From Patescibacteria group bacterium (GTDB taxonomy: Bacteria > Patescibacteriota > Microgenomatia > UBA1400 > PJMF01): 64,000 nt of DNA. The stretch is taken from assembly GCA_016861085.1 (NCBI GenBank), contig BOKR01000001.1, positions 387,271 to 451,270 of the forward strand, in the 5' to 3' direction. The notes under the pieces are model-generated. The model ran no database searches and was not told where the DNA came from. It saw only the letters and a program-made list of their open reading frames with translations. A program made the translations under genes and the position numbers. Shown here in pieces: positions 22,033 to 29,844 of the stretch. Every line of letters begins with the position of its first letter. The stretch's first letter is position 1.

Positions 22033-22878
22033 TTACACCTTCAATCTGGAATAAAATAATTTTAATTTTCTGTGCAGCTGACTTGGAATCCTCATTTGGG
22101 TGACTTCGTATCCTGCCTTGTCCATCATTTTTTGTTTGGCATATTGATCGTGAACTTTTCCCAGCTGTGTGCTTAAATCCCCAAGGTAGTGAAATGTTTG
22201 TATTAGAGATCGATTACTAGGATTTTGCATGGCTGCAACTTGGTATAAATTTTTCAAGTGACGTAAATCTTTTCTGAGATCATGGTATATAGGTACGAGC
22301 ATGTTTGGGCTTTGAATTTGTGCAAGAGATCGTGATTTTATGATATTTATTCTACTTGCACAAACATTTGTAGAAGTGGGAGTAAATGAAAAGGCATTCA
22401 AATCTGAAGACTCAATAAGACTCAAAACTTTCTGGGCATATTTATTTCCTTGTTTAGTGTCGTATGCGTCATTTGTCTTTCCAAGCTGACTCAAGAACGT
22501 ATTGAACGTCTCAGGTGCGCCATCCTCACTGTAGCAATCTAAGGCACTTTTCAAAAGTAACCCTGCTTTTCTTAATTCTTTTAAATATTTTCGAAGCTCA
22601 AAGTTTTGTTTTCTTTCATTCGCAGAAAGTTCTATATATGTTTTAAGTGATTGTGTTAATTGGGTGTTATCAAAGAGAGCTGACCAAAGAGTGGCAGCTG
22701 ATTCTATAGTTTTTTTTACGTCCTCGGGTGATTTGGCAAGTTCAGGAATCACCCTGGGTAACCTAAGTACACGAAAGATTGATTGTTGTAATTTAATGGC
22801 TTCAAATTTTTGGATAATTCCCGTTTGGCCGATTGCTTCTGTTTTAACAGCTCTTCTCATATTTTGGGATTGTAACAT
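22033..22878 (-). CDS. Hypothetical protein (281 aa, predicted helical)
   Basis: Intact ORF, second gene of a two-gene cassette between tRNA-Asp and tRNA-Thr. Confidence 0.45.
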   Translation of the reverse strand: MLQSQNMRRAVKTEAIGQTGIIQKFEAIKLQQSIFRVLRLPRVIPELAKSPEDVKKTIESAATLWSALFDNTQLTQSLKTYIELSANERKQNFELRKYLKELRKAGLLLKSALDCYSEDGAPETFNTFLSQLGKTNDAYDTKQGNKYAQKVLSLIESSDLNAFSFTPTSTNVCASRINIIKSRSLAQIQSPNMLVPIYHDLRKDLRHLKNLYQVAAMQNPSNRSLIQTFHYLGDLSTQLGKVHDQYAKQKMMDKAGYEVTQMRIPSQLHRKLKLFYSRLKV

Positions 22879-22882
22879 TAAA

Positions 22883-23662
22883 TTAATCGGATAAGAGCAC
22901 TAAATCTACTGGTTGATTCCCATATGCTAAATTTGGAATCGGTGCCGAGGAGTAAAAGCCAAGTTTAAATATTTCACAAATGGCTTGATTAAAATCAGAT
23001 CCGAGTTCCATAAATTCATCTGCTGTTAGAGGTCTTTTTTTCTTTCTTTTAAGTTCGGTTTCTTTTTGGCGGAGTACTTGATGCTCTTTTGCTATTACTT
23101 GCTGAAAATTATGCTCAATAAATGCAGCTGCAGTTTTGGTTGTTTTAAGAATTAAAAAAATTCTTCCTTTTGTACTCATTACTAGAAACTGCATATACGG
23201 ATTTGCAATGAAGAATTCAAAATCGGTACTACTAAAAAAAGAAATATAATCGGCAGTAATTCCTTTATCTGGGTGGTTATGTACGACAAAAGATGGTTCC
23301 AAATCTTTTCCTTTTGGAAAATTTGGGGTTACGCTGTTTTCAGTTCCCCAGGTAAAGTTAGCTGTATGGAATTTTTTTTGCTTTTTATCATAAGAGACTG
23401 CTGCAGCGCCCTCTCTCTTTCCTTTTGTTTGATGTGCAAGGATCTTTGCTGCATGTTTGATACCATGTAGTCTGATTTTTTTAGGTAGTCTAGTAATATC
23501 CAAAAATCGTGTCAGCTCATGGCAGAGTCCAAGTGCTTCCAAGAATTTTTCTTCCGGCATTGTAATACCTGCATAAGCATTTAGCAGCTTGTTAAGTTGC
23601 TCTTTTAGTGCAAAATTTTGTTCTGCTGAAGCTTGATCGGCTCGAGTCAATGTTCGTATCAT
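22883..23662 (-). CDS. Hypothetical protein (259 aa) with an HNHP...SxxD motif reminiscent of RadC/JAB-MPN metalloenzymes
   Basis: FVVHNHPDKGITADYISFFSSTD resembles the RadC/JAMM HNHP..S..D signature. Spacing is non-canonical, so this is tentative. Confidence 0.45.
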   Translation of the reverse strand: MIRTLTRADQASAEQNFALKEQLNKLLNAYAGITMPEEKFLEALGLCHELTRFLDITRLPKKIRLHGIKHAAKILAHQTKGKREGAAAVSYDKKQKKFHTANFTWGTENSVTPNFPKGKDLEPSFVVHNHPDKGITADYISFFSSTDFEFFIANPYMQFLVMSTKGRIFLILKTTKTAAAFIEHNFQQVIAKEHQVLRQKETELKRKKKRPLTADEFMELGSDFNQAICEIFKLGFYSSAPIPNLAYGNQPVDLVLLSD

Positions 23663-23724: not shown

Positions 23725-23797
23725 GCCGAAGTAGCTCAGTTGGTAGAGCACTGGTATCGTAAACCATAGGTCGTGGGTTCGACTCCCACCTTCGGCT
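23725..23797 (+). tRNA. tRNA-Thr (anticodon CGT)
   Basis: GCCGAAGTAGCTCAGTTGGTAGAGCACTGGTATCGTAAACCATAGGTCGTGGGTTCGACTCCCACCTTCGGCT. D-loop AGCTCAGTTGGTAGAGC. Anticodon loop ATCGTAA. T-loop GGTTCGACTCC. Confidence 0.85.
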
Positions 23798-23814
23798 CAC
23801 TAAATTTTGTCATG

Positions 23815-23847
23815 AAAAAAGGCCGCTTGAATAAGCGGCCTTTTTGT
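23815..23847. terminator. Bidirectional intrinsic terminator (GGCCGCTT-GAAT-AAGCGGCC with flanking A6/T5)
   Basis: Perfect 8-bp GC-rich stem. It lies between tRNA-Thr and the convergent minus-strand gene block. Confidence 0.65.
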
Positions 23848-23867
23848 TTAAGTTGTGAATACGGAAT

Positions 23868-23954
23868 TTAGAAAGTGATTTGTGCGCTCGCTGCGAGTAA
23901 AAGTATCAGCGCAATGAGCACAATACCAGCGAGGATCAAGAGTTTCTTTTTCAT
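23868..23954 (-). CDS. Candidate 28-aa hydrophobic micropeptide (MKKKLLILAGIVLIALILLLAASAQITF), translationally coupled (ATGA) to the upstream gene
   Basis: Manual translation of the minus strand. Its ATG overlaps the TGA of the 23951..25129 gene. Basic N-terminus plus a 20-aa hydrophobic helix. It ends just before the terminator hairpin and is absent from the ORF track because of its length. Confidence 0.3.
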   Translation of the reverse strand: MKKKLLILAGIVLIALILLLAASAQITF

Positions 23955-25129
23955 GGTGTGTTTTCCCATGTTGGCACCCAATCCATGCCGATTTCATCTC
24001 GGTAGAATGGGTACAGATTGTGAAAGAATTTATCCATGTCGTTGGATTCGATGACGCGTTTTGGAGCGACACTTCCCAGTTCACTCAGGTAATACCAAAC
24101 GTCAGGTTCAAATGGCCATTCGAGGATGACTTCAAATGAACCGATCCCTGTATAGCCGCTTTTTTTTGCTTCTGCAACGGCTAATGCATAAAGGTTATCG
24201 TATGGCCAGGGATTATTGGCATCTGGTGAAGGGTTATTGAAGTGCCACTCAATTAAGGTCTTGAGGGCGTCCAGGTTGCGAGTAGACCGGGTGCCATCCG
24301 GTTCTAAGGGTGCTATCAGTTCTAGCGTGGCCAGCTCGTTAGCCAGGTTGTCGGCCTGGTCAATGTTGGTTCTGAAGTATTCGGCTTCTTGGGGATCACC
24401 GCCGAACAGTGCAAGATGCAGGCGTTTCGCAAGATCTACCCATTCCATGATGACCCCATTGGGATCATCGAAGGTTTTCTTGACTTCATTCCCCGGTTGA
24501 ACCGAATGAGTTAATAACCCAAAACGGACATGAAGCTCGATGTCCACGGTTTGGGTGTGTGTAATGATCTTATTTTCTGGGTCAATTGCCTGGAAGTCAA
24601 GCGGGTTCAGGGTGAAGTTTTGCAGATCGCTCTGCGGAACTCCGCCCCAAAGCTCTCCGAGTTTCGCGTAACCAACACAATACCGGGTTTTGGGAATCAA
24701 TGTGACACTTCCATTACGAACCTGCTCTACGAGAGGGCTGAAATCATTGTGCTCAGGATAGTGTGCTTGGATGCAGTACAAGCCTAAAGCACCTGTTTCA
24801 ACAAGACTCGAAACACGCAGGTCCATCCCCATGGACCCATACACACCCATTAATGCTTGGCGTAACATTTCGGTATCACCTAGGTGATACACATCTTGCC
24901 ACGGTATTTCAGTGACAAGGGTTTGTTCACCAGCAGGACCAGGGGTTGGAGTTAAATCAGCAATCGCGGTTGCGGCTTCTTCAGCCGCCGATGAGGTTGG
25001 GATGTCCGCTTTATCAGGTGACTTATCATTGGCTTGGTCGTCTGACCACATGCTAAACGCAATGAAAGCCAGAATTGCAAGAATGATTGCCTGAATAATT
25101 GGACTTCCACTCTGTTGATTCTTTTTCAT
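23951..25129 (-). CDS. Secreted/membrane-anchored hypothetical protein (392 aa) in a GC-rich block
   Basis: N-terminal signal-anchor MKKNQQSGSPIIQAIILAILAFIAFSMW. No known motif. Local GC is about 50% versus about 35% in flanking sequence. Confidence 0.55.
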   Translation of the reverse strand: MKKNQQSGSPIIQAIILAILAFIAFSMWSDDQANDKSPDKADIPTSSAAEEAATAIADLTPTPGPAGEQTLVTEIPWQDVYHLGDTEMLRQALMGVYGSMGMDLRVSSLVETGALGLYCIQAHYPEHNDFSPLVEQVRNGSVTLIPKTRYCVGYAKLGELWGGVPQSDLQNFTLNPLDFQAIDPENKIITHTQTVDIELHVRFGLLTHSVQPGNEVKKTFDDPNGVIMEWVDLAKRLHLALFGGDPQEAEYFRTNIDQADNLANELATLELIAPLEPDGTRSTRNLDALKTLIEWHFNNPSPDANNPWPYDNLYALAVAEAKKSGYTGIGSFEVILEWPFEPDVWYYLSELGSVAPKRVIESNDMDKFFHNLYPFYRDEIGMDWVPTWENTP

Positions 25130-25216
25130 TTTTTTTACCTATAAAAAAAGTAGATCAGCGCCGCACGAATATTCGTGCAGCGCTGATAATTGAAGTTTAA
25201 AATTTTATAAGGGACT

Positions 25217-26821
25217 TTATGGTGCCTGAATCGGTCCAAAACATACCCCCGAGTTTTGATACTCGGCGTAGGATTTTCCTTCCCACAGGTAAGTCGCGCT
25301 ACATTTGCCAACCCAGAATTCACCACCGAGATCTAACACTGCCGCAACGTCTTGGAGATTTACATAGTCTGTATGTCCCTGATCGCAACTACCAATGGCA
25401 ATGGTGACCCAGGTGCCGTTCCAGTCACCGCAGCCGAAACCAGACACAAAAAGGTTGGGGTTCCAGACAAGTGTTACGTAGTCTGAGAAGCTCCCATATG
25501 ACCCAATCGGTGTTGGAGTGGGCAATGGCGGAGGAGTCGGAGTTGGAGTTCCTACCGGATACGTGACCCGGCAGGGGAACATCCATAGCCCGTCTTTGTA
25601 GCACTCGTTTCCATTAGAAATGCCATCCCCGGTTCCGAACATAGGCACGGTGCGGACCTGGCTAATGGTCCAGCTCGCAGTGACGCCACCTTCAAGAACC
25701 AATGTGTCCGGAAGATCAAGAATCTGCAGGACGCAGGTTATATATTTAAAGGCGTCAGGGCCATTTCCACCAAGCCGATTAGAGTAACCACGCAATCCAC
25801 CTTCTTCGAACCTGAATTCGATATACTCAACCCCTTTGTCCCAGATGGGCAAGGAATCCAGGCTGAATAGCGATGTAGCTGGTTGAAACGACAAGCACAT
25901 GGCTTGCCAACTCTCAACAACTTTCGTTGCCACTACAGGATTCTTTGCTTCGGTCGGCACTACCGGTGCGTTTGGCATCGGTGTGGCGGGCACCATAGTA
26001 GGAATGTCCGCGATTTGGGGTGTCGGTTGAGGAGTTTCTGTTGGCGCAGGGCTTGGAGTAGGCGTGCGAGTTTGAGGAGCGGGAGTAGGAATAACACTCC
26101 AGTTGGTGTTTCCAGGTTGATTCTTGTTCGGGAATGGCGTTGGGGTTACCAATGTGCCATATCCAGGGAGTTCAATCCATCCCACTTCAGGCATGTTTTT
26201 CGAAACTTTGATGTCTTGGAGATTCTCCTTGATAAGAGTCAACAGTCCTGGCCAGTTTGGATAGGCTACGGTCTCTGTAAGCCAATCGAGCCCAGAGATT
26301 TTTCGCTCCGGTTTGTCTTCAGTAGCCTCGATAGTGCCTTCCAACTTTAGGAATTTTTGGTACTGGACAATGTTGAAACAATACCTCGAAGATTGTTGTT
26401 GCAGCTTCGGGTATGGTTCCAACATAACGCCAAGGGCATCAAATTCGATGCGGCCAATTCCTTCAGGACATTCAAAACCCGCGCCATCATTTTTCGATTC
26501 GTCATTGTCGGCTTGGTCTTCAACACCAAAGAAACTGGTAATTTTGTTCCACTCATATTGTCCCCTTGGGGTTTGGAAGAAACCCATAACCAACATTAAC
26601 AAAACCAGAACAACAATAGTCCAAGCCAAAGTTTTAGCATTAGGATCGGTTTTGATAAAGTTCCCAAGATCCTTTGCTTCCGATTTTAGTTCTTGACCAC
26701 TCCGTCTCCGGGCGTTTACCCGGCGAGTGCCAGCAGGGATACTGCTGGGCGTCATGTTTCTTTCTCCGCCCCCTTTTGATTCAGTTGTGTTTGGCAGAGT
26801 TGTTTTCATTTGATTCACCAT
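25217..26821 (-). CDS. Membrane-anchored secreted protein with Pro/Thr-rich linkers (TPTPSPAPTETPQPTPQ; TPTPTPPPLPTPTP) and a Cys-rich C-terminus
   Basis: N-terminal TM TLAWTIVVLVLLMLVMGFF. PT-linkers as in actinobacterial surface/secreted proteins. GC-rich codon usage. Confidence 0.55.
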   Translation of the reverse strand: MVNQMKTTLPNTTESKGGGERNMTPSSIPAGTRRVNARRRSGQELKSEAKDLGNFIKTDPNAKTLAWTIVVLVLLMLVMGFFQTPRGQYEWNKITSFFGVEDQADNDESKNDGAGFECPEGIGRIEFDALGVMLEPYPKLQQQSSRYCFNIVQYQKFLKLEGTIEATEDKPERKISGLDWLTETVAYPNWPGLLTLIKENLQDIKVSKNMPEVGWIELPGYGTLVTPTPFPNKNQPGNTNWSVIPTPAPQTRTPTPSPAPTETPQPTPQIADIPTMVPATPMPNAPVVPTEAKNPVVATKVVESWQAMCLSFQPATSLFSLDSLPIWDKGVEYIEFRFEEGGLRGYSNRLGGNGPDAFKYITCVLQILDLPDTLVLEGGVTASWTISQVRTVPMFGTGDGISNGNECYKDGLWMFPCRVTYPVGTPTPTPPPLPTPTPIGSYGSFSDYVTLVWNPNLFVSGFGCGDWNGTWVTIAIGSCDQGHTDYVNLQDVAAVLDLGGEFWVGKCSATYLWEGKSYAEYQNSGVCFGPIQAP

Positions 26822-26824
26822 TTT

Positions 26825-28606
26825 TTATTTGGAGCCGAATTGTTCTTGAAACATCAACCAGCTTTCCATCAACGCTCTGGATATAAAATATCCAGCGTCT
26901 CCCATCCCTCGGTAGTTGTTCCACATTAAATTGTTGAACAACCCCTTGTACTGACACTTGTTGATGTCAGGAGGATCACATGGGCTGCCGGCATACCTAT
27001 GTGCATAGGTTGCTTGATCGGTGTTATGACTCATCACACCTTGACTAACCGCCCAGTTTGAATGGGCAAGCATTGCGTCAAGATAGATTTGCATATCACC
27101 GCCAGGAAATGCACTGAAGGTATTAAAGAACCACTGTTTTTCTTGCAGTGGTCCCATTGCTAGTGCCGAGCTGGTTGTAAATGGTCCATTACCGTTTCCA
27201 GTCTCCTGGAGTTTTTGAGTGAGGTTGTCCCATATGGGAGCTCCCCCAAGCTGATGAACGGTTAAGGCCGCCAATACCGCCTCATACGGCGGGGATGCAG
27301 TATAAGTATAATTAGCCTTCTTTCCACATGCTTCTTTGGAGATGCCCAATGTTTTGCAGTCGTGCCAGTACCAAAGGGTTTCGTATTGAAGGTTACCTTG
27401 CTGCAGCCACTCGAACCAAGCTTGTGTGCCTGGATCAAGTCCAGCCAAAAGGGCTGGTCTCGTTTGGAAATTTAACACCTGAGGAGTGTATGAGAGTTGA
27501 ATCACCTCAGATGGGATTATGGAGGAGTAGCCATAGGCATTTGCCATTGGCTCAGGAGGTCTTGGGAAGATTATTTCTACTTCCTCTTCTGGTTTTGGTG
27601 GGCTTTCGAATGGCTCATTTTCGGTGACATAAGTAGTTGTATTTGAGTCAGGCTCACTGGCTTTCACCGGTGATCTTGACCAAACGTAAGCTACTATGAC
27701 ACCAGTTAGCAAAACCGCCCACATCGGCCACCAGGATCGTGTTCCCTTGTTTCCCCACAATAGAATTAGAAGTGCTCCTACTAAGAAAAACCACCCATTT
27801 TTAGTTTCTACGAGTTTTGCTCGTAGAGGATGGTCCGCTTGGATATAGGTTTTTTCCCAGTACTCTGTGACTGCTTCTTGCAGTGGAACGTCATTGTTGG
27901 GATTGGAGTCTTGGGTTTCTTCAGTATTCTCAATTTCGGCTATACCGGAACGATCCAAGGTGTCCCACGCTACCTCACCAGGAGGTTGTGGGTTTGGTGA
28001 ACCGTCATCACGGAGGTACTCTGGGATGGTGTCGATACTAACTTGTCCTAGTACATCACCAGGGAAGTCAGTATAGGTAACTGTACCATAGTACACTGTT
28101 CCTGGTTCAACAAATTTTCCGGTTAACTTATCATAGAGTGTTAGATGGGTGTGTTCGCCGAAAGAGTTCCCAAGATTCGCTTCCGTTCCAACTCTCTGTC
28201 CAGCTTGGACGTATTGTCCCACCGACACATTATAGACACCATGAAGGTATATAACCTTCCACCGGCTATTTTCAATTATGAGATACGGATTTCCGTATCC
28301 TTCAGTTGAATTACCGGTGATGGTGCCATTTATGCTTGAGAACAATGGCCCTCCATTGATACTGCTGTTGTAGTCGTAGGCGCACCACGATGGGTTTCCA
28401 GCCCACCCCCAACCGTCTTTATGACAGTAGTACGGCTCTGCAGCCGTACCATAGTTAAACACAAAGAAGTTTGGGTACGGTGGAACAAACACATTATCTT
28501 CATCAGAAGTTTGACGCGGCGAAGCCGCTGTGACTGCTAGCGCCAGGAGTATGAAACCTAACGCCCAAAGCAAACGATATTTTGAGAATTGACGCATGGT
28601 ATTCAC
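26825..28606 (-). CDS. M23 (LytM-type) metallopeptidase-domain protein with signal peptide, a central pair of TM helices and a large C-terminal domain
   Basis: Signal MRQFSKYRLLWALGFILLALAVTAAS. M23 core ...GQYVQAGQRVGTEANLGNSFGEHTHLTLYD (H.H and G.TG motifs). Hydrophobic segments WFFLVGALLILLWG and WAVLLTGVIVAYVWS. Confidence 0.6.
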   Translation of the reverse strand: MNTMRQFSKYRLLWALGFILLALAVTAASPRQTSDEDNVFVPPYPNFFVFNYGTAAEPYYCHKDGWGWAGNPSWCAYDYNSSINGGPLFSSINGTITGNSTEGYGNPYLIIENSRWKVIYLHGVYNVSVGQYVQAGQRVGTEANLGNSFGEHTHLTLYDKLTGKFVEPGTVYYGTVTYTDFPGDVLGQVSIDTIPEYLRDDGSPNPQPPGEVAWDTLDRSGIAEIENTEETQDSNPNNDVPLQEAVTEYWEKTYIQADHPLRAKLVETKNGWFFLVGALLILLWGNKGTRSWWPMWAVLLTGVIVAYVWSRSPVKASEPDSNTTTYVTENEPFESPPKPEEEVEIIFPRPPEPMANAYGYSSIIPSEVIQLSYTPQVLNFQTRPALLAGLDPGTQAWFEWLQQGNLQYETLWYWHDCKTLGISKEACGKKANYTYTASPPYEAVLAALTVHQLGGAPIWDNLTQKLQETGNGNGPFTTSSALAMGPLQEKQWFFNTFSAFPGGDMQIYLDAMLAHSNWAVSQGVMSHNTDQATYAHRYAGSPCDPPDINKCQYKGLFNNLMWNNYRGMGDAGYFISRALMESWLMFQEQFGSK

Positions 28607-29067
28607 CTGGCGTTTTTTGTGTTACTCCAAAGTACGTTATGGAGTTTGTTCCCTTATATATCACTGCAAAAAGGGAGCCAGATAAAGGCACCAACCGTTG
28701 TACATTTTTTCCAACTATTGCTACCCATGTTTGGCCCACTTGAAGCAGTGATACTTTTTTCCGTATTCACTTGTTAAAGTACATTTTTTGTATGCAAAAA
28801 CCGCCCAGCGAACTGGACGTATGCAACAAAAAATTTGACTGGCTTACTTATTTCTTTTCAGCCGGTATGTTCAAAGAAAATCGGTAACCAAGTATTCTCT
28901 TGCAATAAGAGATACTTAGCCCATATCTTTGACAAAGTGGATTATACTATGGGACTATTATCTTGGCAAGAATCATTGAAAAACATACAAACAACATCAT
29001 CAGTATAATTTCAATGTTATAAAAACTTGCATCAAGTTTCCGGGGTACTGTATACTATTGAATATAT

Positions 29068-29844
29068 ATGTCTAGATTTAGCCGTACACAAAACAGGAGA
29101 AGAACTATAGATTCAGTTACAGAATATTCTGGCGTTTCCTCGAGAAAAGTTCGTAGAGAAAAAAAGAAGGTCATGTCTCAATCAGTAATGATGATTGGTG
29201 TTGCTGTCGTTCTATTTTTTACCTTTATTTTTGTCATTATTCCCAATTTTTTCAATTTTATTACTAACTTTCTTGACTCTTCTACACCGTTTCAAGAAAC
29301 AGATGATATTCCACCGCAAATTCCAATTATTTCTGCACCGGTAAGTGCTACAAATAGTGCCGAATTAAAAATTACTGGGTTTGGTGAGCCTGAAAGTTTT
29401 GTTGTTTTTGTTTTAAACGGCGCAAAAGAAGACAAAGTTACAATTACTCAAGATGGTTCTTTTGAAGTGCCGCTTACTTTATCAGAAGGTGAAAATAAAA
29501 TCAGTGCATATAGTGTTGACAAGGCAGACAATGAATCAGCTGTCACAAAAGAATATATCACTGTATTTGACGCAAAACCACCAAGTATAGAGGTAACAGA
29601 GCCTGCGGATGGCTCAAGTTTTGAGACGAGAGCTAACCAGTCTATAACAATTAAGGGCAAAACTGATGCAGATGATCCTGGAATCAAAATTTACATTTCT
29701 GGCAGGCTTGTTTTTCCAAAAGATGATGGTAGTTTTAGCTATGTGTACCGGTTGAATGAAGGTGAAAATAAATTAGAGATTATCGCCCAAGACAAAGCTG
29801 GGAATTCAAACAAGACTGAAGTGACCTATGCTTTTAGGTTATAG
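29068..29844 (+). CDS. Membrane-anchored protein with bacterial Ig-like domains
   Basis: N-terminal TM (MIGVAVVLFFTFIFVIIP; start may be Met at 29173). Beta-rich repeats (ITGFGEPESFVVFVLNG..; IKGKTDADDPGIKIYISG..) typical of Big/Ig-like folds. Candidate promoter TTGCAT-18-TATACT at 29024-29053. Confidence 0.5.
   Translation: MSRFSRTQNRRRTIDSVTEYSGVSSRKVRREKKKVMSQSVMMIGVAVVLFFTFIFVIIPNFFNFITNFLDSSTPFQETDDIPPQIPIISAPVSATNSAELKITGFGEPESFVVFVLNGAKEDKVTITQDGSFEVPLTLSEGENKISAYSVDKADNESAVTKEYITVFDAKPPSIEVTEPADGSSFETRANQSITIKGKTDADDPGIKIYISGRLVFPKDDGSFSYVYRLNEGENKLEIIAQDKAGNSNKTEVTYAFRL

Follow-up and report, generated by a model that had tools for sequence, protein, structure and literature searches.

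A probably horizontally acquired three-gene cell-envelope operon at the tRNA-Thr(CGT) gene of a low-GC Microgenomates genome

Genomic islands are frequent in Patescibacteria, and most transfers occur between members of this group (PMC12455944). These bacteria of the candidate phyla radiation (CPR) have tiny genomes and are thought to be attached to other microbes, and their surface and secreted repertoire is central to this lifestyle and mostly unknown. Peptidoglycan hydrolases of the VirB1-like type, in which an M23 domain is fused to an SLT domain, also occur in Patescibacteria, mostly unlinked to virB4 (PMC12102498). Here, we analyze a 64,000-nt stretch of a Patescibacteria genome (contig BOKR01000001.1 of assembly GCA_016861085.1, hereafter the window) that carries a foreign block of three genes, which we call A, B, and C, beside a tRNA-Thr(CGT) gene. 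The block resembles described tRNA-adjacent islands and integrative elements, including the islands of Patescibacteria (PMC12455944), in that it lies exactly at a tRNA 3′ end, is absent in close relatives, carries accessory cell-surface genes, and probably came from other Patescibacteria. It differs from them in its very small size (5.2 kb, one operon), in having neither an integrase nor a duplicated tRNA 3′ end or attachment (att) repeat beyond the trinucleotide TCA, in carrying an internal inverted repeat that brackets the operon, and in having a related copy whose assembly topology is that of a unit-length circle or tandem. As a plain genomic island the block is unsurprising, as islands and transfer within the phylum are already documented in this group (PMC12455944), and the novelty is modest: a bracketing repeat that co-varies among copies, the lack of any recombinase found, and the unit-length circular or tandem signal. 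The explanation that we consider probable is a horizontally acquired, ~5.2-kb cell-envelope operon that entered the tRNA-Thr(CGT) 3′ end of a low-GC Microgenomates genome from a GC-richer source pool and that encodes a peptidoglycan-remodeling module.

The original prediction had described a compositionally foreign block of ~4.7 kb, and this rise proved real and sharply bounded in 1-kb GC, in GC at third codon positions (GC3), and in dinucleotide and tetranucleotide usage, with the rest of the window and its 52 other open reading frames (ORFs) as the background. GC in 1-kb windows was 0.45–0.50 at ~23.5–28.5 kb vs. 0.29–0.42 in the remainder of the 64 kb. All three genes lie on the minus strand, and gene A (23951–25129, 392 aa) has a GC of 0.482 and a GC3 of 0.478, gene B (25217–26821, 534 aa) 0.492 and 0.482, and gene C (26825–28606, 593 aa) 0.467 and 0.444. 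The 52 other ORFs averaged 0.370 ± 0.024 for GC and 0.286 ± 0.032 for GC3, which places A, B, and C at z scores of 4.0–5.1 and 5.0–6.2, respectively. Their dinucleotide signature distances (delta* × 1000) were 67–83 vs. 33 ± 8 elsewhere (maximum 50), and the tetranucleotide distance of the block had a z score of 10.8. Because the genes deviate at synonymous sites, the anomaly is not merely an amino-acid effect of proteins rich in Pro, Thr, Ala, and Gly.

The site that this block occupies is empty in relatives. Its left junction is the 3′ end of tRNA-Thr(CGT) (23725–23798, plus strand; called by ARAGORN and scored at 69.4 bits with Rfam). We compared the locus with that of 80 relatives, one genome per GTDB species, found with the nearby HtpX gene and all of Microgenomates type (Pacebacteria, Collierbacteria, Woesebacteria). 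The closest relative with enough flanking sequence, L027, shares 90% identity in ParB, 88% in GatA, and 82% in HtpX, and has the gene order ParB, S26, flippase, GT2, Wzy, Big-domain gene, tRNA-Thr(CGT), tRNA-Asp, LemA, HtpX, GatCAB, with 63 nt between the Big-domain gene and tRNA-Thr. The original prediction had raised the question of whether tRNA-Thr adjoins the orthologue of the gene at 29068 in related genomes. It does so not only in L027 but also, at distances of 50–250 nt, in about ten further Microgenomates (including L028, L029, L031, L034, L041, L045, and L049–L051), and tblastn found no homologue of A, B, or C in the loci of any of the 80 relatives.

When the junctions are aligned to L027, similarity stops at the tRNA 3′ end (...GGCTCA) and returns at ~29000, and nothing between 23800 and ~28998 aligns to the L027 spacer. 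The right flank at 29000–29067 (plus strand), which aligns to the 63-nt tRNA-Thr/Big spacer of L027, is ancestral host spacer with the promoter of the Big-domain gene. This gap in similarity puts the inserted DNA at ~23800–28999 (~5,200 bp), so that the insert is larger than its GC-rich part. Most of the AT-rich 460-nt spacer that had been taken as the right-hand limit belongs to the insert. The trinucleotide TCA occurs at both junctions and is the sole sequence common to them. A second copy of the tRNA 3′ end, or an att-type repeat in direct orientation, was looked for and not found: the border zones matched each other directly at 14/20 at best, no better than shuffled sequence, and the tRNA matched the right border zone at 12/16, with no att-like direct repeat longer than 3 nt.

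Composition, empty site, and patchy distribution together give strong support to horizontal acquisition, as first proposed. A vertical history, in which A, B, and C are lineage-typical genes lost in the relatives and owe their composition to protein makeup, expression level, or GC-biased gene conversion, would be consistent with the variable length of the Big-LemA interval among relatives (1–8 kb) and with the recombination tract in gene B described below, which can be read as ongoing gene conversion. However, because no trace of the three genes is found in the 80 relatives, such a history needs many independent losses, and the clean empty site keeps the ancestral spacer. Moreover, each of the three genes, even A with a protein that is not rich in Pro and Thr, departs in GC3 by 5–6 standard deviations, and none of the segments of the variable Big-LemA interval in relatives is GC-anomalous. 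Vertical inheritance is accordingly very unlikely in our judgment.

The sharp compositional boundary, and the fact that several short-read assemblies break inside the block, could also point to a chimera of assembly or binning rather than to an insertion. Still, one or both junctions are crossed with identical sequence by several independent assemblies, namely, a 361-kb Logan contig from DRR258781, a 1.17-Mb NCBI contig, and contigs from DRR258780, DRR258782, SRR8466088, and SRR310917xx. Zero differences across these assemblies from several samples indicate that the join is not an artifact, and the internal breaks are explained by coexisting alleles of gene B. We give a chimera a negligible probability.

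These alleles are seen in strain contigs L011–L013 (SRR310917xx), which differ from the window by 85 single-nucleotide polymorphisms (SNPs) over 3.6 kb. All 85 fall within gene B at 25244–26446; the strains show no difference at all in gene A, in the spacers, or in as much of C as is covered. Synonymous changes (64) outnumber non-synonymous ones (21), and the SNPs are densest over the Cys-rich C-terminal domain, where divergence reaches about 12%. The pattern identifies 25244–26446 as an allele tract imported by recombination, and it is the coexistence of such alleles that causes several short-read assemblies to break inside the island. The tract fits a view of B as an exposed, exchangeable surface protein.

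Beyond the window, homologues of A, B, and C form only 6, 3, and 5 clusters, respectively, at 90% identity among 5.8 billion proteins, and a profile of gene A recovered 37 representative clusters at 50% identity among 1.84 billion proteins. The C-B-A order is conserved in L001, L002, L007, and L107, with 35–70% protein identity, and C, B, and A are the only genes common to these four copies. Contigs L105 and L106 begin within B, so that only the B-A end is visible before further genes follow. In L001 and L007, the cassette looks native: GC is ~0.5 throughout, and the neighbors are MreBCD/PBP2, Wzy, and def. In L002, it lies within an 8-kb GC-rich island between flanks of 0.38–0.39 GC (LeuRS, VanW). 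L111 comes from a different Microgenomates genome with flanks of 0.41–0.43 GC and GC3 of 0.34–0.39, and holds an island with a GC3 of 0.51–0.71 that includes an A-family gene. No further cassette loci were found in JGI metagenome contigs or in IMG/VR. The non-coding ends of the window insert have no nucleotide similarity to those of other copies by blastn, and their resemblance is one of architecture and short motifs.

The contexts of these copies speak to where the block came from. The original prediction had suggested a high-GC host or partner organism, with Pro/Thr-rich linkers and high GC taken as hallmarks of actinobacterial secreted proteins. The linkers are indeed present and the GC does exceed that of the host, but such linkers are not diagnostic of origin, and the genomes that carry homologues look Patescibacteria-like in context, with GC of ~0.42–0.55. 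No actinobacterial name occurs among the homologues, either in the 3–6 clusters at 90% identity or in the 37 representatives at 50% identity. The recovered contexts (MreBCD/PBP2, Wzy, def; the Big/Wzy/flippase/S26 cluster) look like those of small-genome Patescibacteria. Across copies, cassette GC is 0.47–0.59 vs. the 0.65–0.72 typical of Actinobacteria, and the 0.47–0.49 of the window cassette lies so far below that range that an actinobacterial source is disfavored. We regard it as most unlikely that the block came from actinobacteria or from any other high-GC host or partner. The most likely source is instead a pool of GC-richer (~50%) bacteria of the same general kind as the recipient, with the donor clade read from gene context only. 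In this picture, CPR-type genomes that differ in GC exchange a small set of cell-envelope cassettes, and the tRNA-Thr neighborhood serves as a landing zone. Gene flow among CPR lineages is seen here in a clean and well-delimited form, in which the empty site can be set beside several independent copies and beside recombination among strains.

Several further features of these related loci were recorded. The GC-rich island of L111 (1–6442), inside which the 277-kb contig begins, occupies the same tRNA-Thr(CGT)/Big/Wzy/GT2/flippase/S26 locus as that of the window but flanks the tRNA on its 5′ side. Its genes encode a polytopic membrane protein, a 245-aa SLT-like protein, a 583-aa protein of B-like size, the A-family protein, and a metallophosphoesterase. 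Longer versions of the cassette extend beyond A in L002 (7063–10478), L105 (2360–4724), and L106 (2453–4829), where A is followed by a signal-peptide or lipoprotein gene (76–91 aa), a gene for a 258–285-aa membrane protein, and one for a 429–547-aa polytopic membrane protein. These accessory membrane proteins had no family match in Pfam, NCBIfam, PHROG, or PADLOC. In L002, the genes after A are preceded by a separate promoter and by a leader with homology to that of L107. The window, L001, and L007 each have a Wzy gene upstream of the cassette. The Wzy protein of the window is, however, dissimilar to the other two, and we dismissed this synteny as coincidence.

The three encoded proteins agree with their initial description as a signal-anchored protein of 392 aa, a transmembrane (TM)-anchored protein of 534 aa with Pro/Thr linkers and a Cys-rich end, and an M23 peptidase of 593 aa. 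Gene C probably starts at an ATG at 28597, which follows a Shine-Dalgarno sequence (AGGTGA) and gives a protein of 590 aa. The product comprises a signal peptide, an M23 (LytM) domain at about aa 60–160, a linker, two TM helices at about aa 270–311, and a C-terminal domain of 230 aa. The M23 domain matches PF01551 at 32.5 bits (cut-off 28.7; E = 1e-7), and its profile finds ShyA, LytM, and lysostaphin as the best matches in PDB (E from 1e-7 to 1e-5). H122, H152-x-H154, and D78 are invariant in six sequences. Gene C thus shares with the LytM/M23 endopeptidases (LytM, lysostaphin, ShyA) and with the non-catalytic EnvC, NlpD, and DipM the M23 fold, the HxH motif, the preceding catalytic His, and the metal-binding Asp, but it differs from them at the first His of HxxxD, which is Trp or Gly.

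The C-terminal domain of gene C is highly conserved (79% mean column identity) and is predicted to be all-helical by a low-confidence model. At the same position, the L007 orthologue has a true SLT domain (PF01464, E = 5e-19), and the invariant LQETGN…AMGPLQ of the gene C family is spaced like the catalytic LQESGG…AVGLMQ in that orthologue. By hhalign, the domain aligned to the 245-aa “TES…GPLQF” protein of L111 with E = 2e-4 and a probability of 44%, and to the SLT domain of L007 over 8 columns only. We infer from these features that the domain is SLT-like. Because two TM helices follow an exported domain, positive-inside logic would place both soluble domains outside the membrane. Gene C is predicted to encode a membrane-anchored, bifunctional peptidoglycan hydrolase.

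Genes A and B encode what may be its partners. In protein A, a short Pro/Thr/Ala linker connects the N-terminal TM anchor to an extracytoplasmic domain of ~320 aa. The protein matched nothing in Pfam, NCBIfam, PHROG, PADLOC, or PDB, even with a 33-sequence profile (a 9-sequence profile gave the same outcome). Protein B probably starts at 26809, which gives 530 aa. A single TM helix separates its cytoplasmic N-terminus from extracytoplasmic domains that are joined by two Pro/Thr linkers and finish in a Cys-rich domain, and cysteines are conserved among homologues. Protein B likewise had no family match in Pfam, NCBIfam, PHROG, or PADLOC and no PDB profile match. A Pfam UEV match in B was below threshold and present in 1/4 members, and we rejected it as spurious. 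The B homologues of the native-context copies, P0008 (L001) and P0009 (L007), have an N-terminal cytoplasmic CxxC…CxxC segment that resembles a zinc ribbon and that is missing from the versions in the window and L002.

The M23 domain and the membrane topology fit the surface or cell-wall-remodeling module that was originally suggested. In this model, the M23 endopeptidase of C would cut peptide cross-links while its divergent lysozyme/SLT-like domain would cut glycan strands, both outside the membrane. A and B would act as membrane-anchored, extracytoplasmic partners of C, and the Pro/Thr linkers of B may be long enough to cross the wall. Together, the three proteins could open or remodel peptidoglycan locally, either in the cell's own wall or in that of a partner cell. 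On these grounds, we propose that the operon functions as a self-contained peptidoglycan-remodeling surface module. With a peptidoglycan hydrolase and two conserved, uncharacterized partners as its cargo, the locus offers a defined three-protein module that is testable for wall remodeling and for host attachment or attack.

A number of observations weigh against this explanation in one part or another. The first zinc-ligand His of HxxxD is replaced in gene C (by W74, and by Gly in the homologue P0014), and C could for this reason be a non-catalytic regulator of the LytM type. A conserved Cys-His-x-Asp (C61-H62-x-D64) lies 13 residues upstream and might stand in for the missing His, and catalysis by the M23 domain is likely but not certain. 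The C-terminal domain had no Pfam match at E ≤ 10 in five members and no PDB profile match, and the term SLT-like rests on the motifs, the position, and the hhalign match at 44% probability. AlphaFold2 models were poor, with a mean pLDDT of 37.6 for C (5-sequence alignment) and 38.7 for A (6 sequences). A and B belong to uncharacterized families without detectable relatives of known function. As for the origin, the assignment of the ~50%-GC carriers L001 and L007 to Patescibacteria rests on gene context, and the search for a recombinase, a direct repeat, or an att-like duplication larger than TCA turned up nothing to account for the insertion.

A hydrolase of this design also invites comparison with the VirB1-like enzymes of conjugation systems, such as PrgK of pCF10, TraG of pIP501, CwlT of ICEBs1, and the VirB1-Peptidase_M23 fusions (PMC12102498). 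The cassette resembles them in pairing a membrane-anchored endopeptidase with a glycan-cleaving domain, which is a true SLT in the L007 orthologue and an SLT-like motif in gene C of the window, and in being encoded with other membrane proteins on mobile DNA. It differs from them in that no VirB4, VirD4, VirB6, or relaxase lies nearby and A and B are unrelated to known components of type IV secretion systems (T4SSs). Gene C also differs in its order (M23, two TM helices, glycosidase-like domain) and in a C-terminal domain without a match to the SLT model.

The block could thus be read as the remnant of a conjugative T4SS island, with a VirB1-like hydrolase beside channel components, or of a prophage, with an endolysin or tail lysin. 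Hydrolases that combine M23 with SLT or SLT with CHAP (PrgK, TraG, CwlT) are a hallmark of conjugation systems in monoderms. Fusions of VirB1 with M23 have been noted in Patescibacteria (PMC12102498), and genes for small and for polytopic membrane proteins are added in the longer versions of the cassette. The M23 domain of gene C, moreover, matches PHROG endolysins and tape-measure proteins at E values from 1e-6 to 1e-3. However, these PHROG matches are confined to the generic M23 domain, IMG/VR holds no A-family relative, and the accessory membrane proteins do not match VirB3, VirB6, or VirB8. At least five cassette contexts contained no gene for a capsid, terminase, tail, VirB4, coupling protein, relaxase, or integrase. 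VirB4 and channel components were absent within ±10 kb in the window and from L001, L002, L007, L105–L107, and L111. We consider a prophage or T4SS remnant improbable, and the horizontally acquired cell-envelope operon remains the reading that we prefer.

The insert forms a complete transcription unit on the minus strand, with a promoter, a leader, genes C, B, and A, an orphan ORF, and a terminator. Contrary to the original statement that no repeats flank the block, an inverted repeat brackets C-B-A. Its upstream arm (TTCCGTATTCACTTGTTAAA on the plus strand, 28759–28778) belongs to the 5′ leader, ~160 nt ahead of where C starts, and is identical in strain L021, and its downstream arm (TTTAAGTTGTGAATACGGAA on the plus strand, 23847–23866) lies in the 3′ untranslated region (UTR), between the last ORF and the terminator. 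The arms are complementary at 17/20 positions, with an exact 12-nt core that occurs nowhere else in the 64 kb, and shuffled border zones matched this in 3/500 and 1/300 cases. L107 has an inverted repeat of 15/16 (AAAGTGAATACAGTTT as the upstream arm and AAAGCGAATACAGTTT as the reverse complement of the downstream arm; 0/300 shuffles), and L002 has one of 13/14 (AATTGAATATTGAA and AACTGAATATTGAA, respectively; 2/300 shuffles). No such inverted repeat was found in L001, where the cassette is in its native context. The arms therefore occur at the same two positions and co-vary among copies that share only ~50% protein identity, and the single mismatches in the L107 and L002 arms would each be a G.U pair in the sense RNA. 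Downstream of A, both copies also have the same order of repeat arm and then terminator.

Long-range pairing between the 5′ and 3′ UTRs of bacterial mRNAs is known from icaR of Staphylococcus aureus and hbs of Bacillus subtilis, and rRNA operons are processed through comparable stems. The cassette is similar in having complementary segments of 15–20 nt in the leader and before the terminator, with co-varying arms and single mismatches that would form G.U pairs, but its whole-UTR duplex energies are no better than those of shuffles (z from -1.0 to -1.7). At 48 and 220 nt inside the insert ends, the arms are not classical terminal repeats, and because both lie within the predicted transcript, pairing between the two UTRs is attractive. 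It is equally possible that the repeat pairs in the mRNA or that it serves as a DNA site for recombination or for an operator. We also observed an 8-nt core of the repeat, GTGAATAC in the sense direction, at 28763–28770 and 23855–23862 and a third time at 28599–28606, over the Shine-Dalgarno sequence and start of C (CAGGTGAATACCATG), so that the 3′-UTR arm could in principle pair with the ribosome-binding site of C as well. This third copy has a weaker similarity in L107 and is absent in L002.

The remaining elements of the unit were read along the transcript. A strong sigma-70-like promoter (TTGCCA-17-TATAAT, 11/12) is predicted at 28941–28969 (minus strand), and directly downstream of its -10 box lies a 5′-terminal stem (~28905–28930, minus strand). 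A compensatory change from T.A to C.G between the window and strain L021 in this stem suggests that a 5′-terminal RNA stem is conserved. Just upstream of the repeat arm, the leader contains a hairpin with a 7-bp stem and a TTCG loop, followed by a U run (28802–28819, minus strand), and the leaders of L107 and L002 have a similar hairpin and U run in this position. Between B and A, a 15-bp GC-rich hairpin followed by a T run (25154–25187, minus strand) could act as an internal attenuator or RNA stabilizer. The orphan ORF (23868–23954, minus strand; MKKKLLILAGIVLIALILLLAASAQITF) has 28 codons, looks like an orphan signal peptide, and overlaps A by its ATG, which shares the TGA of A (ATGA). It is probably a remnant of the small fourth gene of the longer cassettes, given that genes of 76–78 aa with a signal or lipoprotein peptide start after A in L105 and L106. 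A bidirectional intrinsic terminator, with a perfect 13-bp stem flanked by A and T runs (23816–23845), ends the C-B-A operon and also serves the tRNA. An Rfam scan of the insert at E ≤ 1 returned only the tRNA and chance terminator-like matches.

A unit with its own promoter, leader, and terminator would probably move as a whole, by way of a recombinase encoded elsewhere. Mobile DNA without a recombinase of its own is known to use recombinases in trans, as in IMEX elements that exploit XerCD and in the gene cassettes of integrons. The window unit is similar in being small, lacking its own recombinase, having a possible circular form, and being inserted in a way that looks site-specific. It differs in that no dif-like or attC-like site was recognized, in that it has its own promoter and three genes, and in that a circle is suggested by contig overlaps only. 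The block had originally been described as not a recognizable mobile element. That no integrase is present in the window is borne out, as Pfam found no integrase or recombinase domain in any gene at 11–41 kb, nor in the other cassette contexts examined, but the co-varying repeat and a circular or tandem relative of unit length call for a revision of that description.

The evidence for such a unit comes from L107-type contigs, which occur in at least six runs, several of them also with the organism of the window. These contigs have fixed ends, contain C-B-A only, and never include a chromosomal flank. L109, from another run, continues past A through the repeat arm, the terminator, a perfect promoter, and 56 nt and then enters the first 30 nt of L107; the A side of this join reads …CATATAAT plus 56 nt, ahead of the start of the L107 contig. 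The overlap of exactly 30 nt equals k-1 for an assembler with k=31, and L109 and L107 are identical over their 2,641 shared nt. The end of A would thereby be joined to the start of C in a circular or head-to-tail unit of 5,227 bp. This topology is suggestive, not proof. The window insert (~5,200 bp) is colinear with the 5,227-bp unit as if opened between terminator and promoter, and the window sequence joined in silico resembles the continuous L107 sequence, with a predicted circle junction of …CAAAATTTAG-TGA-TGTTGTTTG….

The preferred explanation could on this basis be extended to a recombinase-free mobile unit, a circle or tandem of ~5.2 kb that integrates by tRNA-Thr through a recombinase acting in trans. 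The recombinase could be, for example, a Xer-type enzyme of the host or the integrase of another element, and the inverted repeats might be part of the recombination or regulatory apparatus. The L109/L107 overlap, the identical ends of L107-type contigs from at least six samples, the colinearity of the window insert, and the occurrence of A-family islands next to the same tRNA-Thr(CGT) in two different hosts all favor this extension. On the other hand, the topology was read from the ends of short-read contigs from different samples, and a short dispersed repeat or a chromosomal tandem duplication would give the same graph. The element also has no replication or recombination gene and no att-like direct repeat longer than 3 nt, its inverted repeats are internal rather than terminal, the L002 cassette continues into further island genes, and IMG/VR gave no match. 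We therefore hold this extension only tentatively, as possible but leaning toward doubtful. Were it true, it would be an example of streamlined genomes that exchange DNA without mobility genes of their own. In its boldest form, C-B-A would be a new minimal CPR mobile cassette of ~5.2 kb, recombinase-free, with its own promoter and terminator, that circularizes or amplifies in tandem, targets the tRNA-Thr(CGT) neighborhood of Microgenomates with a recombinase in trans, and shuttles a wall-breaching surface module of a bifunctional hydrolase and two novel exposed proteins between lineages, with the repeat either closing the 5-kb mRNA or acting as the recombination site. As a whole, we judge that proposal unlikely.

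Next to the insert, the interval between tRNA-Asp and tRNA-Thr is a variable region across Microgenomates. In the window, it contains two ORFs of host-like GC (22033–23662; 281 and 259 aa) that have no homologue in the 80 relatives and no family match. The 259-aa protein shows a weak match to DUF4329 (JAB/MPN-like) and an HNHPD…SSTD motif. Finally, among the relatives' loci (L025–L104), many that are clearly Microgenomates by synteny and 60–88% HtpX identity bear the titles “uncultured Pseudomonadales,” “Gammaproteobacteria,” “Vitreimonas,” “Methylococcaceae,” or “Limisphaerales,” which look like mislabeled submissions.

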